A DNA stretch of 64,000 bases from an uncultured Gemmatimonadaceae bacterium (GTDB taxonomy: Bacteria; Gemmatimonadota; Gemmatimonadetes; Gemmatimonadales; Gemmatimonadaceae), in contig CAVXGK010000002.1 in the NCBI GenBank assembly GCA_963761305.1, forward strand, positions 992,001 through 1,056,000, in the 5' to 3' direction. The position numbers and the translations under genes are program-made. The notes beneath the pieces were generated by a model. It was not told the DNA's origin and ran no database searches. It saw only the letters and a list, made by a program, of their open reading frames with translations. This document shows, piece by piece, positions 18,483-30,180 of the stretch (within the stretch, counting starts at the first letter, position 1; each line of letters opens with the position of its first letter).

Positions 18483-19235
18483 CTACCTCCCCGCGTGCCT
18501 GCGTTCGCTGAACAGCGGCTCGTCGTCGCTGTCGAGAAACGCGACGATGTCGCCCGCCGGGGCCGACGGCGGCACGAGGTGGCCTTCGGCGGCCAGGCGC
18601 ACGAAAAAACTCACCGACGGCAGCCTCTCGCGCGACGACGTGCGAGCGGTCTCCTGCATCGGCGTATCGACGGTTCCGGGCTCGAATGAGAGAATTGCAA
18701 TGTCGGCGTGCGTGCCGCGGGCGCGCGCCGCTTCCTCTTCGGCGGCGAGCGCCATGCCGGCCATGCGGAGCCCGGCCTTGCTGGTGCAATAGGCGCCGAG
18801 TCCCGCGATTCCGCGCACCGCCGCCGCCGACGACACGTTGACGATGCGCAGCGGCGTCTCGGCCGGCGTGCGCCGCGCGACCTGACCCATCAGCCACGCC
18901 GGCGCGACGACGTTCGTCGCCAGAACGCCGGAAAAAGCCTCGGCCTCGGTGCGCGTGAGGGGTCCGAGAAATCCGGCGTGGGCAGCATTGTTGACCAGCG
19001 CCACGCGCGCCCATCGGGCCTCGCCGAACGCGGCGTCGAGGCGCGGCGCGACGATACGCGCGAGCAACGGCGTGTCTCCCAAATCGACCGACACGTGTTG
19101 ATAGTGCTCGTGCCGGATCTGCGGGTCGCGCCGCGCGAAGCCGACGACTCTCCAATCGCGCTCGAGCAGCTGGCGGGCGACGGCGTCCCCGAGGCCGGAC
19201 GATGTTCCGGTGACGAGCGCGATGCGGTTGGGCAT
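18483..19235 (-). CDS. Short-chain dehydrogenase/reductase (benzil/sepiapterin reductase-like)
   Basis: VTGTSSGLG, LVNNAA, NVSS, YCTSK, PGTVDTPMQ; start 19235 or 19247. Confidence 0.9.
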   Translation of the reverse strand: MPNRIALVTGTSSGLGDAVARQLLERDWRVVGFARRDPQIRHEHYQHVSVDLGDTPLLARIVAPRLDAAFGEARWARVALVNNAAHAGFLGPLTRTEAEAFSGVLATNVVAPAWLMGQVARRTPAETPLRIVNVSSAAAVRGIAGLGAYCTSKAGLRMAGMALAAEEEAARARGTHADIAILSFEPGTVDTPMQETARTSSRERLPSVSFFVRLAAEGHLVPPSAPAGDIVAFLDSDDEPLFSERRHAGR

Positions 19236-19334
19236 TTGATAGGACATTCTAACAGCCGTGTGGCCCAGCCCGCTCGGCTCGAGACGCGTCATTCGCCGTC
19301 GTACGTTCGGGCCTTCTCGCGCCCGGGAGCCAGC

Positions 19335-19650
19335 GTGCAACTCTTCGATAGAAGCGCGGTGGTCGCCGTATCGTTCGTGCTCCTCGCCGGACCACTCCCG
19401 GGCGTGTCTCGGACAATCGCGCCGTCGGCGACGGCCGACCCGGACGCCTGCTCGCTGCTCACCACGACCAGGTGAACGCGCCGTCGAGGCCAAGACGCAG
19501 CCCGGTCAACACCTGGTCGCGTCGAGCACCAAGCAATGCATCTGGTCCGACGCCGCCACGCCGATGGACGTCGCCAGCGAGGCTCCGTACCTGTACGTGA
19601 AGAAAGGCAATTCGTTCTTGTGCGTGCGCGACCGCACGCCGCCGCCATGA
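19335..19650 (+). pseudogene. Frameshifted remnant of a secreted protein gene
   Basis: Signal-like VVAVSFVLLAG and DACSLLT in one frame (stop at 19473-19475), continuing as AVEAKTQPG...KQCIWSD...LYVKKG in another frame. Confidence 0.5.
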
Positions 19651-22706: not shown

Positions 22707-22709
22707 CTG

Positions 22710-24476
22710 CTAGAGCGGCTCGAGACTCTTGGAGCGGAAGATGACCTGCCAGTCGATCAACTCGGAGGCCATCATGTCGGCGAACTGCGCCGCGCTCTCG
22801 CCGACCTGATCGGAATCGAGGGGCAGGCTCTCGTTCTCGACGCGGACGCGCAATTGCGCCAGACGCGCGGCCATGGCGCTCGACCGGCGGTGCATTCGCC
22901 CGAATTCCGCTTGTCCGGCGATGCCGGCGAATGCCGCGCCGAGGGCGGGCAGCAGCGCGGCGGCGACGACCAGCCACGCGTTGCCCCACCGCGCCGCGTC
23001 GTGCAGCGACTCGGCCAGTACCCACGGCGACAGGTGCTCGTGCTGGAGACGCCGGTAGTCGTACGCGAGATGGAGCGTGCACACGATGAGCGTCGCCCCG
23101 AACAACAACTTGGTGAGGCGATGGATGCGATGCTCCAGGCGTTCGCTTCGGTCGGCGTTGACGGTGTGGTACGCGACCTGTGAGACGATGCGCGGCGCCA
23201 ACCACTGGTCGCGATACGCTCTCAGATACGGCCGGTCGATCGTGACCGGCGGCAGCGCGGCCTCGCGAAGTCGCGCGCGAAAGAGCCAGTTCACCCAATC
23301 GTGCGTGGCGTCGGCGTCTTCGTGATACGGCGGCGTGTGAAACGACGGCAAGCTGCGCCCGATCGGCCAAAGCAACTCGCCGTGACTCAGTTGTTGGGCC
23401 AGCAGCCGATAGTGAAGCCAGCGCTTGTGCCAGCGGTGCCGGCGCTCCCACACGATGAGTCCGAGCACCCACAGAATCGTCGCGAGCTCGAGCCAAGTCG
23501 CCCACGACGAGATGTAGCCGAACATCGCGCACGCCACGGCGAAGACGCCGAATAGGTACACGCCGACGAACGAGTCGCGATATCGGCCGGCGTACCGGTT
23601 CGCCAGATCGTCGGCCCGTACGCGCTCCGCTTCCACCGGCGACAGGGGTAGCGGTCCGTTCGGATCGGGCGCCGTCTCGCGCCATGCAGCCTTCTTGCGC
23701 GGACGCACGAGGGGTTCGGTGAACGCCCGGTACAGTCCTCGCCAAAGCCGCCGACCCGGCCCCTGATCCTGCCAGTACGCGCCGCGCATCACACCCTCCG
23801 GATCGTCCGGCACGTCGAGCAGCCGTTTGATCTCTCGCGGCAGGACGTCGAGCGACTGCGTGGCTCCCATGCTCTCCGCCCCGGCGGAGATGACGGAACA
23901 CGTATTAGGGGATTTCGATGAAATCCAGATGACCGGAATCCCGAGCGCGACCGCGCCCACCACGACCTCGCCCGTTCCGCCGCGGCCGTTCGCGGCCTCG
24001 CCGTCCCAGATGGCGAGGAGCACGTCGGTGTGCCCCAGGAGAATGCGGCCGACGCGCGCATACGGCAGCGCGCCCGTCGAGTGGTCTCCGTCCAATTCGA
24101 GCACCGAGCGCGCGCGGCGAATGAGCCGGTCGAACCCCGACGTGTCGGCGAAGTCCTTCTTGTATTCGTCGCGCGCAAACGGCAGCGGCGCGTCGAGCTC
24201 GTACCCCAGCTCGAGTCCGACATCGGCGATCAGCTGATCGGCGCCTTCGGCCAGCGCGGACACGAGCACGAGTCGCGGCGGATCGGCCGAGTAGTCACCC
24301 TGCCCCGCGCCCGCGATCTCACGTGCATGCTCGGCGATTTTGCGAAGCGCCAGCCGCACCGAGTTGCACAACGCGGTCTTGTCGACGGGCTCCAGCGCCT
24401 TGGCGCGATGCCCCGTCGCTCCGACCCTCAACGTGATGCGCGGCCGCGGCGGCGCGGCGACTGGCGGTGGCGTCAA
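22710..24476 (-). CDS. SLOG-like domain fused to two SLATT/DUF4231-like transmembrane modules
   Basis: RVGATGHR, SALAEGAD, LLAIWDG-x5-GGT (SLOG/YspA-like motifs); two 2TM hairpins, first followed by WHKRWLHYRLLAQ, second preceded by QVAYH and followed by SELIDW. Confidence 0.72.
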   Translation of the reverse strand: MTPPPVAAPPRPRITLRVGATGHRAKALEPVDKTALCNSVRLALRKIAEHAREIAGAGQGDYSADPPRLVLVSALAEGADQLIADVGLELGYELDAPLPFARDEYKKDFADTSGFDRLIRRARSVLELDGDHSTGALPYARVGRILLGHTDVLLAIWDGEAANGRGGTGEVVVGAVALGIPVIWISSKSPNTCSVISAGAESMGATQSLDVLPREIKRLLDVPDDPEGVMRGAYWQDQGPGRRLWRGLYRAFTEPLVRPRKKAAWRETAPDPNGPLPLSPVEAERVRADDLANRYAGRYRDSFVGVYLFGVFAVACAMFGYISSWATWLELATILWVLGLIVWERRHRWHKRWLHYRLLAQQLSHGELLWPIGRSLPSFHTPPYHEDADATHDWVNWLFRARLREAALPPVTIDRPYLRAYRDQWLAPRIVSQVAYHTVNADRSERLEHRIHRLTKLLFGATLIVCTLHLAYDYRRLQHEHLSPWVLAESLHDAARWGNAWLVVAAALLPALGAAFAGIAGQAEFGRMHRRSSAMAARLAQLRVRVENESLPLDSDQVGESAAQFADMMASELIDWQVIFRSKSLEPL

Positions 24477-24664
24477 GTCCAGGCTGACCGTGTGAGATCC
24501 GATTCCACTGAGCGTTCAAAGGTCCGCCCGCCCGGGTGGTTTCGCCAGACGCCCGCGCCTCTGCACACGAGTCGCGCGTGACTGGCGGGTCGGACCGCCG
24601 ATTGGTAGCTTCGGCCCGCAAGAGGAGTGGCTTCCCCCCTCGCTCCTACTCGCCCAAAACTCGC

Positions 24665-25405
24665 TTGCCTCATCTCCCCAGGCCACTCGTCACGTTGGCC
24701 GCGGCAACGATTGCGCTGACGGTGATCGGCTCCGGCTGCACATTTCCCGACCCGCCGAGTCAATCGGGCTTTGTCGCGCTCACGATTCAGACGCACTTGG
24801 ACAGCGCCGGCGCCGTCCTCGTCGACACCGCCGATGGGACGCGCACCGTCACGATCGACGCGGCGCTCGACACGATCCAGGCGCCGCTGAGCGCCACGGT
24901 GAGCTTCACCAGCACCGCCGGCACATTGCTTCCCGTGTCGCAAAGCGGCGCCGTCACGGTTCCGGTCGATGCGAGCGGGCACGCGCGCGTGCAACTGCGT
25001 GCACCCTCGGACACCGCGCGCTCGGACATCACGGCCACGGCGGCCGGCATCACCCGGTCGGTGACGGTCACGTGGCTTCCGGCTCCAGCGACGGTCGTGC
25101 AGGTGCAGCCGCAATCGCCAGTGCTGTCCACCGGCTCGAGCCACACGATGACGCTCAACGTCACGCTGCTGCGCACCATCGGCGCGCCGAGTCCGGGATC
25201 GCTGGTTTTCTTCAAGGCGGTCGACACGCTCGGGCAAACGCTCGGGCGCTTCAGCGCCGATTCTCTAATCGCAACGACACCGGCCGTCTCGGTGTCGTAC
25301 ACGGCGGGCGACGGCCCGTATCTCGGACCGGTGACGCTTCGCGTGCGGGCCGCGCGCGGCACGCAGAGCGTCACCGGCACCGGTTCGGTTCTCATCACCA
25401 AATAG
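24665..25405 (+). CDS. Putative lipoprotein with bacterial Ig-like (invasin/Big) domains
   Basis: Hydrophobic stretch plus IGSGC lipobox-like motif; VSFTSTAGT, VDASGHARVQL, ITATAAG; probable TTG start. Confidence 0.65.
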   Translation: MPHLPRPLVTLAAATIALTVIGSGCTFPDPPSQSGFVALTIQTHLDSAGAVLVDTADGTRTVTIDAALDTIQAPLSATVSFTSTAGTLLPVSQSGAVTVPVDASGHARVQLRAPSDTARSDITATAAGITRSVTVTWLPAPATVVQVQPQSPVLSTGSSHTMTLNVTLLRTIGAPSPGSLVFFKAVDTLGQTLGRFSADSLIATTPAVSVSYTAGDGPYLGPVTLRVRAARGTQSVTGTGSVLITK

Positions 25406-25408
25406 CCG

Positions 25409-26823
25409 ATGAATCCGTTCCGCACTCTTTCGCTGCACGATACTCGCGCGCGTGCGTGGGTGGCGGCGACCCTGCTCATGCTCGGCGGCGCCGCCGCGGC
25501 GCGCGCGCAGTCGGTCGGGTCGTCGACTCCCTGTGGTCTCGACCCGGCACCCGTGGCGGAATCAGACCGGCTGCCCGAGTTCGCGGTGCGCCAGCTCGCT
25601 CCGCGCGACGTGCGCGAGCTCCGCTCCGCGCTGAAAACGAGTGTTGGACGCGCGCACTCGGCACGTTCTACAGCGTGTTCCGCCCCGATCTTCCCGACTG
25701 GATCGTCTACATCGACTCGTCGGGCGTGATTCACCAAACGTTCCTTCACGGACGCGACGTCGACTCCACGTCGCGAGTGCTGTACGGCGAGCGGTACATC
25801 TGGGCCTCGATCTTCAGCGACCGGCCGATGCACGACGTGTTGACGCCGGAGGAGGATCGCGCGCTGCGGGCCGACCTGGCCGGTTCGCCGGCGCCGCGGC
25901 CGTTCGCCCCCGACGCACCCGCCGCACGCGTGTGTAGCACCGCCGGCGGCGTGGCCACCGGAGTCGGAGGAGGACCGGGCGGCGCTGGGGGCGGGAGCGG
26001 AGGCGGTGGTGGCGGCGGAAATGGGGCGGCCAATGCGGCGGCGAGCGCGCGAGCGACGGTGCTGTCGTCGGATACGTCGGATCTTCGATTCTCCCGCCGG
26101 CTGATCGCCTATCATCGCGATCCGGTCGTGTCGCTGCTGATCAAGGGTCTCACGAAGCTCGTCGGCGTGGATCCTGGGAGCGACCCCGCCGCCGCCGATT
26201 CGACGCGCCTCGTCGAGTTGCAGGAGGTGTCCGCGGATACGACGGCAGACCGGATGTATGCCGGCTTCGGCCGGTTCGGCCTCATCGAGAACGCGCAGGT
26301 GGAGCTGTCGCTGGCGCCGGTGCGTTGCAAGGCCTTCCCCGCCGCGCGCCGCGCCACCGACGCGCCGACCGCCGATTCGCTCGGCCGGATAGACTTCATT
26401 TATGCTGATTTCGTGAATGCGAAGCATCGCATGTTCGACCTGGCGGTGCTCACTGGCGTCACCTGGGGCGGCCGGATCCCGACATACAACAGCAACCTGC
26501 AGATCACGAGCGAAACGCCGCGGCTGTCCGCCAACGCGTATCTGACCGTCGTGTACAACATGGTCAACCTCGGATTTCTCGACGGACACTTCGCGCAGAG
26601 TCCGTTCTGGCAGCAACGTCCGTTGGGCATCTTCGCCGGAACGAACGTCGCCCGCGGCAGCCTGGCCGACGAGCTGGTCGCCGGCGGCGTGATCGGCGAT
26701 TTGCTCGGCAACGCCGGCATCGCGGTCGGTTGCTCGTGGGTCAACGCGCCGCACGTCGAAGACGGTCACACGGTCGGCCGCATGCAGCGCCGGCTGCTCG
26801 CCGGCTTCGATCTCCGCCTCTAG
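25409..26823 (+). CDS. Secreted / putative outer-membrane protein, split by an apparent -1 frameshift at about 25634-25637
   Basis: Signal peptide in frame 25409; body (NECWTRALGTF...LLAGFDLRL) in the -1 frame; one extra A in ctgaaaacgag joins them; Gly-rich linker; beta-signal-like C-terminus. Confidence 0.6.
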
Positions 26824-26833
26824 CTCGCGGCGC

Positions 26834-28834
26834 GTGACCAGCTCGATCGTCGTCGAGACCATGTACCCGCGCCCAGCGCGCGCCGACGCCCACGCGCTGG
26901 TCCGCGAGTGGCAACTGCACGACGAGTCGACGTGGGCCTCCTCCCCGACGCCGTACGTTCGCGCGGCCGAGCAGTTCGCCGCGCGGGCGAGCCGCTCGCC
27001 GCGTACGACGCCATCGCGGAAGGCCTTCGGTATCATCCGACGAACCTGCGCCTCCGCCAGCTGCAAGGATTCACGCTCGCGCAAAGCGGCGATGCCGAGC
27101 GCGCGATCGTCGCGATGGAAGCGTTGGCGGCTGAAGGCGGACAGTCGTCCGACCAGCTCGAGGAGACGCTGGCTGCATTGGCGCGCGTCTACAAGGAACA
27201 GGCGCTTCGCCGCAGCGGCGACGAGGCGACGCGCGCCGCCGTGCGCGCGCGCGATGCGTACCTGCGCGCGCACGACGTGTCCGGCGGGTACTACAGCGGC
27301 ATCAACGCGGCGGCGCTCGACCTTCGGCTCGGCGAAGCCGAGTCGGCGCGAACGCTCGCGCGCGCTGTCGGGTCGCGGGCCGAGTCGGCGTTCGAAGGTG
27401 GACCCGCCAGCCAGAAGTATTGGGCAGCGGCAACGGTCGCAGAGTCGGCGCTCATTCTCGGTGACCAGGAACGGGCGATTCGCTGGTATGAACGCGCGCT
27501 CGAATACGGCAACGAGCCCGGCGACGTCTCCAGCACGCGACGCAACGCGCGCCTGATCATCGACGCGCTGGGTCTGGACCGCGTGCTCGTCGACGGGTTG
27601 CTCCGCGTCCGCGTTCGCCTCCATCGTCGGGGCCGCGTCGTTCTCGGCGGACGGACCATTTCCCGCTGCGCTGGAAACCGAATTGTCGGCATTGATCGCG
27701 CGACGACTCGCCGACGACGACGTGCGATTCGCGTACTCGTCCGGCGCGGCGGGTACGGACATCCTCCTCCTGGAGTGCGTAGAGCAGCGCGGCGGGCGAA
27801 CGCACATCGTCCTGCCGTACGGGCCGGACGAATTCATCCCCGATCGTGTGGCTCGCGACGGCGCGGGCCCGTGGCGCGACCGCTTCGATCGGGCCGTCGC
27901 CAACGCCGACGAGGTCGTGGTCGCCACCGACCGTCGGTTCACCGTCGGCACGTCGCTTCACGAATACGCCGAGCGGCTGCTGTTCGGTCTCGCGCGCGTG
28001 CAAGCGCTGGCGCTCGACACGGAGCTCGTTCCCTTCGTCGTGATCGACGAAGGGGCGAACGCGAGCGACGTGGACCGCGCCGTGACGACACTGCGCGATC
28101 GCGGGCAAAAGCCGATCGTCGTCGACGTCGCGTCGATGCGCGGCGTGCGCGTTGCGCAGTCGTCGCCGGCAGGGTCGTCCGCGCCGAGCGACTGGGCAGC
28201 CGACACGCGCATCCTCGGCATTCTCTTCGCCGACGTCGTGCACTCGAGCCAGCTCACCGACGACCAACAGCCGCTGCTCGTGAAGCACTTTCTCGGGCGC
28301 ATCGGACGCCTGGCGCGCGAATCGCCGAACCGGCCGGCCTGGAAGAACACCTGGGGCGACGGGCTGTACATGGTATTCGACGACGTTGGTCGCGCCGGCC
28401 GGTTCTCGCTCGAGCTGCGCGACGTGATCACCGGAACGAACTGGCTCGACTACGGTCTGCCGCGACACCTCACGATGCGCATCGGGCTCCACGCCGGTCC
28501 GATATTCTCATATGAGGATCCCATCACGGGATATCAGAACTTCACCGGGCGGCACACCATTCGGGGCGCGCGAATCGAGCCGGTGACGCTGCCCGGCCAG
28601 GTCTACGCGAGCCGCGAGTTCACCGCGCTGGCGGCGGCCGGCTTCGCCGACGACTTCACGTGCACACCGGTCGGGCGCGTCACGCTCGCCAAGAACGCCG
28701 CGACGACGTCGTTGTTCGTGGTCGAGTGGGCGAGTCGCCCGGTGGACGCGACTCGCGGCGACGCTACGACGCCGTCACTGGAGGGGGCGACGACGCGCGC
28801 CGAACAGCCCGCAGCATCAGCTGGCCCAGGCTGA
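26834..28834 (+). CDS. TPR (TRAFs-binding/DUF4071-like) + degenerate SLOG-like + class III nucleotide cyclase, split by two apparent frameshifts (about 26980 and 27610)
   Basis: Three consecutive frames: VREWQLHDESTW...; GEPLAAYD, GGYYSGINAA, YWAAATVAE, STRRNARL; SSGAAGTDIL, ILFADVV, NTWGDG, RIGLHAGP, ARIEPVT. Confidence 0.78.
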
Positions 28835-29951
28835 CGACGATCATCGCCAGCCCGGCCGCGGCGAGGCAACGGCGCGGCCCGACCGACGCGACGTCGGCGA
28901 TGCGTCCGAGCAGCGGCGCGCTGCACCCCATGGCGAAGAACAGCACGACGAAATAGAGTGCCATCGCGCGGCCCCGCTCGGCGTCGGGCACGCACGCTTT
29001 CACGTCGGTGACGAGGCTCGAGTTGATGATCAGCCACGCGACGCCCGCGGCGGCGAGCGCGATACGAAGCGTCCACCCGTCGCTCACGGCGACGATCGCC
29101 GAGCTCGCGCCCAACAGCACGCACGACCAGATCCCCGCCCGCGCCAGGCCGAGGCGTCGCTGCACGGGGCCGATGATCTCGACGGCGAGCACGATGCCGA
29201 TGCCGAAGAACGACAGCAGGCGCCCGTACTCCGTCGGCGTCGCGCCGTGCTGCACGCTCGGCAGGAGCGCGAAGAGCGCGACTCCCAGGACGCCGAACAA
29301 TCCGGCACGCGTGAGAATCGACGTGTAGTCGCGAATGGCGACGATCTCGCGAGCTCCCTGCCGCAGGATGCTGCCCAAAGCCGCGGTGTTCGGGTGGATC
29401 GCCGGCCGGTCGTGCCAGCGCGCCAGCACGACGATCACCGCCACGAACGAGGCCGCATTGCAGATGAAGGCGGCGCCCATACCGAATTGCGCGATGACAT
29501 AGCCGGCGACGAGCGGCCCGACGGCGCGCGCGCAGTTGAAGGCGAGGCTGTTGAGCGCGTAGGCTTGCCCATCACGGCGCGGCAGGACCATCTCGGGGAT
29601 CACGGCGAACATCGCCGGCGTGGCGATCGCCTGCCCGACGTTCAGCAGCACCGTGAAGCCGAGAAACCGAAGCGGCGTCAGGCCGTTCGAGATCGTGACG
29701 ATCGCCAGCACGCTCGCCGCGCCGAGCATCCAGCACTGCGCGATGAGCACCACGCGGCGGCTGCCGAACAGATCCGCCGCCGCGCCGGCCGCGAACGCGA
29801 ACATCGCCATCGGGAGAAGCGTCGCCGTCTGGACGAGCGCCGGCCAGACCGCCGACGTGCTCGCACCTTTCGTGTAGATCTGACCCGCGACGTCCTGGAT
29901 GTTCGTGCCGACGTTCGAGACGAGCGCCGCCACCCAGAGGGCGCGAAACAC
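28764..29951 (-). CDS. MFS transporter (MFS_3-like)
   Basis: FRALWVAALVSNVGT, AGAAADLFGSRRV, ARAVGPLVAG, ERGRAMALY; about 12 TM segments; start uncertain. Confidence 0.82.
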   Translation of the reverse strand: MFRALWVAALVSNVGTNIQDVAGQIYTKGASTSAVWPALVQTATLLPMAMFAFAAGAAADLFGSRRVVLIAQCWMLGAASVLAIVTISNGLTPLRFLGFTVLLNVGQAIATPAMFAVIPEMVLPRRDGQAYALNSLAFNCARAVGPLVAGYVIAQFGMGAAFICNAASFVAVIVVLARWHDRPAIHPNTAALGSILRQGAREIVAIRDYTSILTRAGLFGVLGVALFALLPSVQHGATPTEYGRLLSFFGIGIVLAVEIIGPVQRRLGLARAGIWSCVLLGASSAIVAVSDGWTLRIALAAAGVAWLIINSSLVTDVKACVPDAERGRAMALYFVVLFFAMGCSAPLLGRIADVASVGPRRCLAAAGLAMIVVSLGQLMLRAVRRASSPPPVTAS

Positions 29952-30047
29952 CGGTTGCCGAAGTGGCGACCAGACCCCGCTGCTATGGTAGCGGTAGCGC
30001 TCTTCGAGTGGATGCCGCTCGTCGTGATGGTGCGTGGAACGCTCGAC

Positions 30048-30173
30048 CTATTTGTGGTAGAAGCGCTCGCGCACCACCCCCCCGTTCTTCCACCGGCGCA
30101 CCGCGACTGCCTCGCGCGACTTGCGTTCGATGATCAACGCATTCAGGCGCGTATCCAGTTCGAGTGTGTTCAT
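30048..30173 (-). pseudogene. 41-aa internally deleted SnoaL/NTF2-like gene remnant
   Basis: MNTLELDTRLNALIIERKSREA joined directly to VAVRRWKNGGVVRERFYHK, resembling the first helix and last strands of SnoaL-like proteins. Confidence 0.55.
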
Positions 30174-30180
30174 CTCGATC

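Follow-up and report, generated by a model that had tools for sequence, protein, structure and literature searches.

Within a 64-kb stretch of the genome of an uncultured Gemmatimonadaceae bacterium (GenBank assembly GCA_963761305.1; 5.2 Mb in two contigs; our code G000), referred to here as the window (contig CAVXGK010000002.1, positions 992,001 to 1,056,000; C2:992001-1056000), a predicted SLOG-SLATT membrane effector faces an operon whose last gene encodes a protein with TPR-S, SLOG and class III nucleotide cyclase domains. Judged from its sequence, this four-gene block is a real, clade-restricted accessory cassette, although its function is a prediction only. The explanation that we tentatively prefer, while regarding it as somewhat short of probable, is that the two core proteins are coupled receivers of a TIR alarm derived from nicotinamide adenine dinucleotide (NAD) and of the ADP-ribose type, which they would convert into two outputs. 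Both proteins belong to large uncharacterised families (SLOG-SLATT2 effectors, of which one genome scan confirmed 542 loci, and TPR-S-SLOG-cyclases, with more than 1,000 matches) that normally stand beside TIR or STAND sensors. In this cassette each has the other as its partner, and where this is so the cyclase has lost its SLOG site.

The effector is an intact open reading frame (ORF) of 588 amino acids, and all of the motifs previously pointed out in it could be located: GATGHR at residues 19-24, SALAEGAD at 73-80, and the two halves of WDG-x5-GGT as IWDG at 156-159 and GGT at 166-168. Most positions of these motifs show 74-100% conservation in a set of 99 homologs; the window's protein deviates from the family at A20 and A74. 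In the AlphaFold2 (AF2) model (predicted local distance difference test score, pLDDT, 92; predicted template modelling score, pTM, 0.90) the N-terminus has the fold of the SLOG superfamily, with YpsA as the best structural match (Z 17.3, root-mean-square deviation 2.5, 158 aligned residues), followed by DprA (Z 13-14), LOG and ThsA (Z 7-8.5), in agreement with the SLOG assignment of the original prediction; the Pfam SLOG profile gave no match, and a PDB sequence search with the effector returned nothing useful. SLATT domains, which were named for their link to SLOG, consist of a hairpin of two transmembrane (TM) helices and a W..W..YR helix. The two predicted SLATT modules of two TM helices each correspond to two helical repeats, matched under the curated cut-offs by NCBIfam SLATT_1 (E 1.2e-8, 35 of 41 bits, two stretches) and Pfam DUF4231 (E 6.6e-5, 23.7 of 24.7 bits); many homologs of the effector carry PF14015. 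A hydropathy scan gave three clear C-terminal TM peaks (304-322, 324-342 and 502-520), with a fourth helix (~455-471) under the threshold used. The pocket motifs are essentially identical in TIR-linked members (P0009, L157) and cyclase-linked members, and L157 falls in the same effector clade in a tree of 77 subsampled rows. At that locus (L157:2767-4824) a fusion of a kinase, a middle domain and a TIR domain lies in convergent orientation to a close homolog of the effector (42%).

The last operon gene matches Pfam TPR-S (PF20308; E 4e-14, 53.5 bits against a cut-off of 27.6) and, marginally, Guanylate_cyc (E 1.6e-4, 21.8 of 21.9 bits). In the model of an intact allele (pLDDT 90), the TPR-S region has the ASK1-like TPR fold (Z 16.9 to the ASK1 regulatory region, 5ulm), and the cyclase fold is closer to CyaB (Z 21.2) than to PycC structures (Z 14.8-15.8). 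The earlier calls of TPR and class III cyclase domains are thus upheld, and the middle domain, described earlier as Rossmann-like, has a SLOG fold (Z 13.8 to YpsA) devoid of the family GHxxD and WDG..GGT motifs; profile comparison links it to the effector SLOG (probability 97%). The canonical class III pattern comprises an Asn/Arg pair together with specificity residues that are Lys/Asp in adenylyl cyclases and Glu/Cys in guanylyl cyclases. The window's cyclase combines the class III fold with the metal-binding residues D459 and D501 and with R572, all invariant in 93 cyclase-family sequences, but it departs from the remainder of that pattern: in an alignment to Rv1264 and a trypanosome cyclase, N497 occupies the base-specifying Lys position, N561 the Asp position, and I568 the transition-state Asn position, at which 78% of the family have Ser. 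One report describes a mycobacterial class III cyclase whose Gln-Asn pair supports a mixture of adenylyl and guanylyl activity (10.1101/2024.03.06.583649). Cyclase activity of the window's protein is plausible from its residues, with a purine cyclic nucleotide slightly favoured as product by the fold scores. Two cyclase-family paralogues (L254 and L255, in G1179 and G1138) have substituted catalytic Asp residues and adjoin a STAND gene.

Gene neighbourhoods of related loci support the conflict- or defence-type context that had been proposed. Using domain profiles built from Pfam-confirmed neighbours, we surveyed 160 effector loci and 43 cyclase-centred loci (47 less four without a cyclase domain; G806 and G1068, which are RyR-only matches, were left out). 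TIR lies within 5 kb at 66/160 effector loci, and at 41 of the 76 that are flanked by 3 kb or more on each side; RyR or TrkA-N occurs at 27/160 and patatin at 8/160. Around the cyclases, TIR is found within 8 kb at 24/43 loci, RyR (often fused) at 21, STAND at 11 and S8 peptidase at six. The sole TIR gene detected in the source genome is ~2 Mb away (C2:3033583-3034836) and encodes a TIR-TM-extracellular protein of 418 amino acids; its orthologue in G019 (L220:9120-13365) is directly followed by a SLOG-TM effector gene, which is missing in the source genome. Similar SLOG-TM matches occur in G005 and G024.

Linkage of effector and cyclase is restricted to one clade plus a few distant loci. The closest homologs of the two proteins occur on contigs of the same size, namely 48,786 nt (P0003/P0248), 325,882 nt (P0004/P0249), 7,019 nt (P0006/P0252) and 14,411 nt (P0242/P0365), so that a same-size cyclase partner was found for 4/9 of the closest effector sequences; these pairs reach down to 50% identity, and their trees are congruent with full support. 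Extending this co-divergence to G527 was rejected, the placement of its effector being unsettled (75/76 support). In G527 the DNA shows cyclase and effector head-to-head with no gene between them, in an island that also encodes PycTM (after the effector), patatin, an nSTAND-TPR protein and a SIR2-like/TIR protein; L148 and L153 have the cyclase and then the effector in the same direction (the L148 partner being SLOG only), and at L075 the divergent gene encodes a TPR-S-SLOG protein whose cyclase is degenerate, and a Crp gene is present. By a rough estimate, chance would produce ~0.04 cases of cyclase-effector adjacency among the 160 loci. Strict family-wide linkage was rejected, as a cyclase stands by the effector at 2/160 loci and an effector by the cyclase at 1/43, and the expectation that homologs of the two genes would be linked therefore holds within the clade and at the distant loci but fails across the families. 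A full cyclase-family gene was present in 4/50 effector genomes searched (30 of 80 genome loci having been left out), in no case inside the flank examined, and a full-length effector in 0/31 genomes with unlinked cyclases; these counts make the pairing an exception in both families. A complex prediction for the effector SLOG (8-225) and the cyclase (8-630) scored 0.00 and counts neither way. No cyclase-family relative was confirmed on viral contigs, and plasmids gave six distant matches only.

Loss of the cyclase's SLOG motifs tracks this linkage. The fused SLOG of 93 cyclase-family proteins keeps GH (95/88%), D (89%), W (88%) and GG (86/90%), all of which are lost in the clade of the window's cyclase. 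Both the H and W motifs are missing from 6/6 effector-linked cyclases with a visible SLOG; the 37 unlinked cyclases include 32 with both motifs, four with W only and one with neither, and for this last (in G468) the same contig holds an effector at a distance of ~365 kb. The count leaves out L153, whose SLOG lies off the contig, and L075, whose cyclase is degenerate and whose SLOG keeps GH. Since five of the six linked cases share a clade (95 support in a quick tree), with linked cyclases at three places in the tree, the losses represent two or three events rather than six. One possible though doubtful account is that the cyclase lost its SLOG site because the membrane SLOG-SLATT partner had assumed sensing: a receptor-cyclase split in two, arisen at least twice and bridging the logic of Thoeris and Pycsar, which would serve either as a relay of an NAD-derived alarm (into membrane damage and a cyclic mononucleotide) or as the first SLOG gated by a 3',5'-cyclic nucleoside monophosphate (cNMP), made in this case by a cyclase with an Asn/Asn pocket.

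Features of the block and of related loci (window positions unless a locus code is given)
Feature	Position	Strand	Basis or remarks
SLOG-SLATT-SLATT membrane effector (predicted), 588 aa, intact	22710..24476	-	ORF, profiles, AF2 model, 367 homologs
YpsA-like SLOG domain, GxTGHR / SxLAEGAD / WDG..GGT motifs intact	23886..24449	-	motifs, fold match
First SLATT (DUF4231-like) 2TM repeat	23250..23633	-	profiles, hydropathy
Second SLATT-like 2TM repeat	22719..23243	-	second SLATT_1 stretch, AF2 model
Divergent intergenic region	24477..24664	.	near-identical contigs of three public runs cease aligning at ~24555-24562
Big_1/Ig-like lipoprotein	24665..25405	+	lipobox IGSGC; TTG start at 24665 inferred, longest ORF from 24536
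Secreted protein, no named family	25409..26823	+	beta-rich C-terminus; frameshift near 25655; intact 459-aa relative, 77% identity
TPR-S + degenerate SLOG + class III nucleotide cyclase	26861..28834	+	frameshifts near 26975 and 27612
Cyclase domain	28202..28726	+	D459, D501, R572 retained; base-specifying Lys/Asp positions Asn; transition-state Asn position Ile
MFS (major facilitator superfamily) transporter, convergent, within accessory block	28764..29951	-	nothing ties it to the system
Accessory block between ABC (ATP-binding cassette) permease and S9 peptidase	22707..30180	.	missing at site in 5/6 same-genus regions
Effector coupled to TrkA-N(-RyR) protein or standalone RyR gene	L019:11808-13838, L028, L030, L033, L066, L081; L027, L040, L068, L142, L171

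The divergent, tightly packed arrangement described in the original prediction is confirmed (3 nt and 37 nt separate the genes of the plus-strand operon), with the correction that the operon contains three frameshifts. The ABC permease joins the S9 peptidase within 0.7-1.5 kb in 5/6 same-genus regions (the sixth is rearranged), and the 22.7-30.2-kb block is present in 0/6 of them; a full-length effector was found in none of 30 same-genus genomes, and the cyclase query matched 4/400 genomes of the bacterial family (one match being TPR-S only) and 1/400 genomes in a phylum sample. GC content at third codon positions in the cassette (0.82-0.85) is similar to that of the flanking permease. No att-like repeats, promoter or terminator were seen at the block, no sigma-70 site was found in the divergent intergenic region, and a DNA search of 60 relatives gave the flanking permease as the only match among the matches listed. 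In four genomes of the same genus, the short-chain dehydrogenase and a neighbouring segment that lie upstream of PadR here (18486-19650) are found between permease and S9 peptidase, which makes the site a hotspot of rearrangement and insertion.

The first two operon genes seem to be dispensable. The lipoprotein is Big_1-like (atlas score 0.96); the secreted protein belongs to a family of 92 representatives with a conserved motif (W..AL..Y...Y.P.LPDWVVYID) and a barrel-like C-terminus, for which no Pfam match (30 members searched) and no useful PDB sequence match were obtained. Its homologs (7 clusters looked up) occur on three contigs equal in size to effector/cyclase contigs, down to 55% identity. 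Neither gene seems required, because the secreted gene recurs without the pair in 4/4 other genomes of the bacterial family that have it (G600, G246, G764 and G734; in G600 joined to or overlapping an Ig gene); the pair in turn occurs without both genes in G527, L148, L153 and L075. Their status as obligatory parts was accordingly rejected, and they are probably long-retained passengers, or else contribute no more than an envelope-side input. The secreted family is also present at loci L280-L283.

As to the frameshifts (near 25655, 26975 and 27612), an intact 658-aa cyclase allele (P0365) is 97, 98 and 100% identical to the three pieces in the window, and cyclase relatives of 663-667 aa at 56-81% identity are intact as well. 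A contig with the same length as that of P0365 (14,411 nt) carries a truncated effector (P0242) and a secreted protein (P0371) whose frame shifts elsewhere but is continuous at the position where the window's secreted gene breaks. These complementary breaks indicate long-read indels, and the operon frameshifts are probable long-read artefacts; public contigs gave no usable bridging of the sites.

Several other arrangements were seen in the two families. At 27/160 loci (examples in the table) the effector goes with a TrkA-N(-RyR) protein or with a separate RyR-domain gene of ~100 aa, a combination that resembles a bacterial RyR/SLOG channel module. In three genomes, at L098:8092-19817 (G339), L228 and L229, the gene of a RyR-TPR-S-SLOG-cyclase stands ahead of those for an S8 subtilase, a small protein and an ABC transporter, and in G339 a divergent TIR and nSTAND pair precedes it. 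At L230:1019-6435 (G592) an operon encodes trypsin-TPR-S, a non-specific endonuclease, TIR-TPR-S, a small SLOG-like ORF and a probable STAND protein.

The mechanism that we tentatively prefer would run as follows. A TIR protein elsewhere in the genome, for which the gene at ~2 Mb is the candidate, would make the NAD-derived alarm in trans; the intact SLOG of the membrane protein would bind it, and the tandem SLATT helices would open as a pore; the TPR-S cyclase with its decayed SLOG would answer via TPR-S or via its partner, making a purine cyclic nucleotide. The cassette would then behave as a Thoeris receiver does, but with an additional output of the Pycsar kind. We favour this two-output TIR receiver because of the ligand precedents for SLOG, SLATT and TPR, the unchanged pocket motifs, and the presence of a TIR in the genome that lacks a neighbouring effector. 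It gains further from the TIR bias of both families, the G527 island, the motif loss in linked cyclases, the lack of full-length effectors in the 31 genomes with unlinked cyclases, the ASK1 match of TPR-S and the higher fold scores against purine cyclases. In the available portions of the sources, the SLOG of ThsA binds 3'-cyclic ADP-ribose (3'cADPR) (bioRxiv 10.64898/2025.12.03.692087; PMC9503650), SLATT effectors of type VII Thoeris respond to cyclic ADP-ribose (cADPR), and the TPR of ThsI in type VIII is a proposed cADPR sensor (bioRxiv 10.64898/2025.12.03.692087).

A number of observations weigh against this reading. TIR is absent from the cassette and from the whole window, the pairing in trans rests on the single comparison with G019, the TIR profile was seeded from the same loci in which it was counted, and 17/76 well-covered effector loci have none of the partner domains tested. 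Catalysis is not assured, given Ile at the Asn position here and the prevalence of Ser in the family. The four homolog linkages were deduced from identical contig sizes in nt and not from contig sequence, and 5/9 of the closest effector sequences have no cyclase on a same-size contig. A 7,974-nt contig (~94% identical) carries the effector and matches the window as far as 24562 but departs from it over the next 1 kb, the operon not being within 1 kb upstream of the effector; two shorter near-identical contigs end at 24555-24556. As the linked cases mostly form one clade, with 2-3 independent origins, the Fisher value for motif loss is an overstatement. Lastly, three frameshifts in a 3.4-kb operon exceed the genome background of nine in 122 kb (in 7 of 77 orthologous genes; P 0.002-0.01).

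The model of the original prediction can be framed as a Pycsar-like system complete in itself, in which a trigger is sensed by TPR-S, a 3',5'-cNMP is made by the cyclase (as the replacement of TIR in signal making), and the partner SLOG, recruited to read it, opens the SLATT pore. Such a system would account for the retention of the pair with no TIR in the window, and it gains from the congruent trees, the direct co-directional operons of L148 and L153, the degenerate SLOG in all six visible linked cyclases, the non-canonical Asn/Asn base-specifying pocket and the PycTM gene of G527. We nevertheless place it second, as improbable though far from negligible, because the pocket motifs of the effector match those of its TIR-linked relatives; furthermore, TIR-linked L157 belongs to the same clade, the G527 island itself contains TIR and STAND, and effectors have TIR or STAND beside them at 70/160 loci against two with a cyclase. 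The SLOG ligands described in the available parts of PMC9503650 and PMC13276650 are ADP-ribose derivatives, AMP-type nucleotides or DNA, and those parts, like the available parts of bioRxiv 10.64898/2025.12.03.692087 and 10.64898/2026.08.12.744502, contain no SLOG that binds a 3',5'-cNMP.

Two further alternatives were weighed. The two genes could be orphan modules of TIR-based systems that were inherited together as cargo of one insertion hotspot, the cyclase operon perhaps decaying here: the frameshift excess, the divergence of near-identical contigs just upstream of the effector and the rarity of linkage across the families fit this idea, and the congruent trees are explicable by simple vertical descent. 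It is an unlikely explanation given the intact, 99%-identical cyclase allele, the breaks of P0242 and P0371 at different places (as read errors would give), the intact relatives, the adjacency in separate lineages far above the chance expectation and the correlation of motif loss with linkage. Least likely of all is a non-antiviral role in envelope signalling: a cue at the cell surface would be reported by the Ig lipoprotein and the secreted protein, with the SLOG-SLATT protein acting as a channel gated by a ligand and the cyclase supplying the Crp-type regulators of the cell. The secreted gene does accompany the pair on the three same-size contigs, Crp or cNMP-binding genes neighbour related cyclases at L075 and L218, the source genome has a cNMP-binding/Crp-like match, and no further defence-type domain of the profile set used was found in the window; against this stand the mutual independence of the pair and the two envelope genes and the patchy distribution of the cyclase family (4/400). 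The two-output TIR receiver thus continues to be our preferred, if tentative, explanation, and the cassette offers a compact two-gene test of the ligands of YpsA-like SLOG and TPR-S, of the relay of TIR signals into cNMPs, and of the product of an Asn/Asn class III cyclase.

Burroughs et al. 2015 and Burroughs & Aravind 2020 reportedly predicted SLOG/SLATT and TPR-S conflict systems and defined all modules of the cassette. No description of the cyclase-effector pairing was found in the literature searched, a comparison to which those surveys and Figure 1/Table S1 of the Pucsar study were external. As far as its available text goes, PMC7159879 shows that in other conflict systems cNMP cyclases, SLOG and SLATT are modules that can be swapped for one another. 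The cassette was said to match no canonical CBASS, Pycsar or Thoeris layout, and this is borne out by PADLOC (0 matches over 7 frames): no CD-NTase (SMODS) was detected in the cassette frames by Pfam, PADLOC or NCBIfam, the window contains neither a PycTM nor a cNMP-binding gene, and the effector operon has no TIR, as Thoeris types I-XI would have. Canonical Pycsar has a PycC-clade cyclase next to PycTM or CNBD-TIR and produces cUMP or cCMP upon infection, and Thoeris effectors are activated by a signal derived from ADP-ribose. The closest relatives of the cyclase are (RyR-)TPR-S-SLOG-cyclases, annotated as 'TRAFs-binding domain-containing protein' (1,084-1,155 matches), which share its three-domain core at ~40% identity; the window's protein differs in lacking a fused RyR domain, in its lost SLOG motifs, and in having a SLOG-SLATT effector as partner instead of TIR, STAND or S8 peptidase. 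From what is available on Pycsar/Pucsar (bioRxiv 10.64898/2026.08.12.744502), a class III cyclase by a membrane effector is the common element, reinforced by PycTM in the G527 copy; the cassette's cyclase, however, is fused to TPR-S and SLOG with a fold nearer to purine cyclases than to PycC, and its effector, which lacks a cNMP-binding domain, is of neither the PycTM nor the CNBD-TIR type. Type I/III Thoeris, in the available portions of PMC13276650 and PMC9503650, likewise fuses a SLOG sensor to a killing domain, but the output here is SLATT and not SIR2, the SLOG is nearer to YpsA than to ThsA, and no ThsB adjoins. There is also a likeness to type VII (TIR with the SLATT protein ThsH) and type VIII (TIR with ThsI, a CMP-hydrolase-TPR protein), which, in the parts of their description at hand, share with the cassette a SLATT membrane effector (predicted here) and a TPR domain as proposed cADPR sensor, respectively, and whose association with TIR recurs at many loci of both cassette families; unlike them, the cassette has no TIR, its effector carries a fused SLOG and two SLATT repeats, and its TPR-S protein terminates in a class III cyclase.

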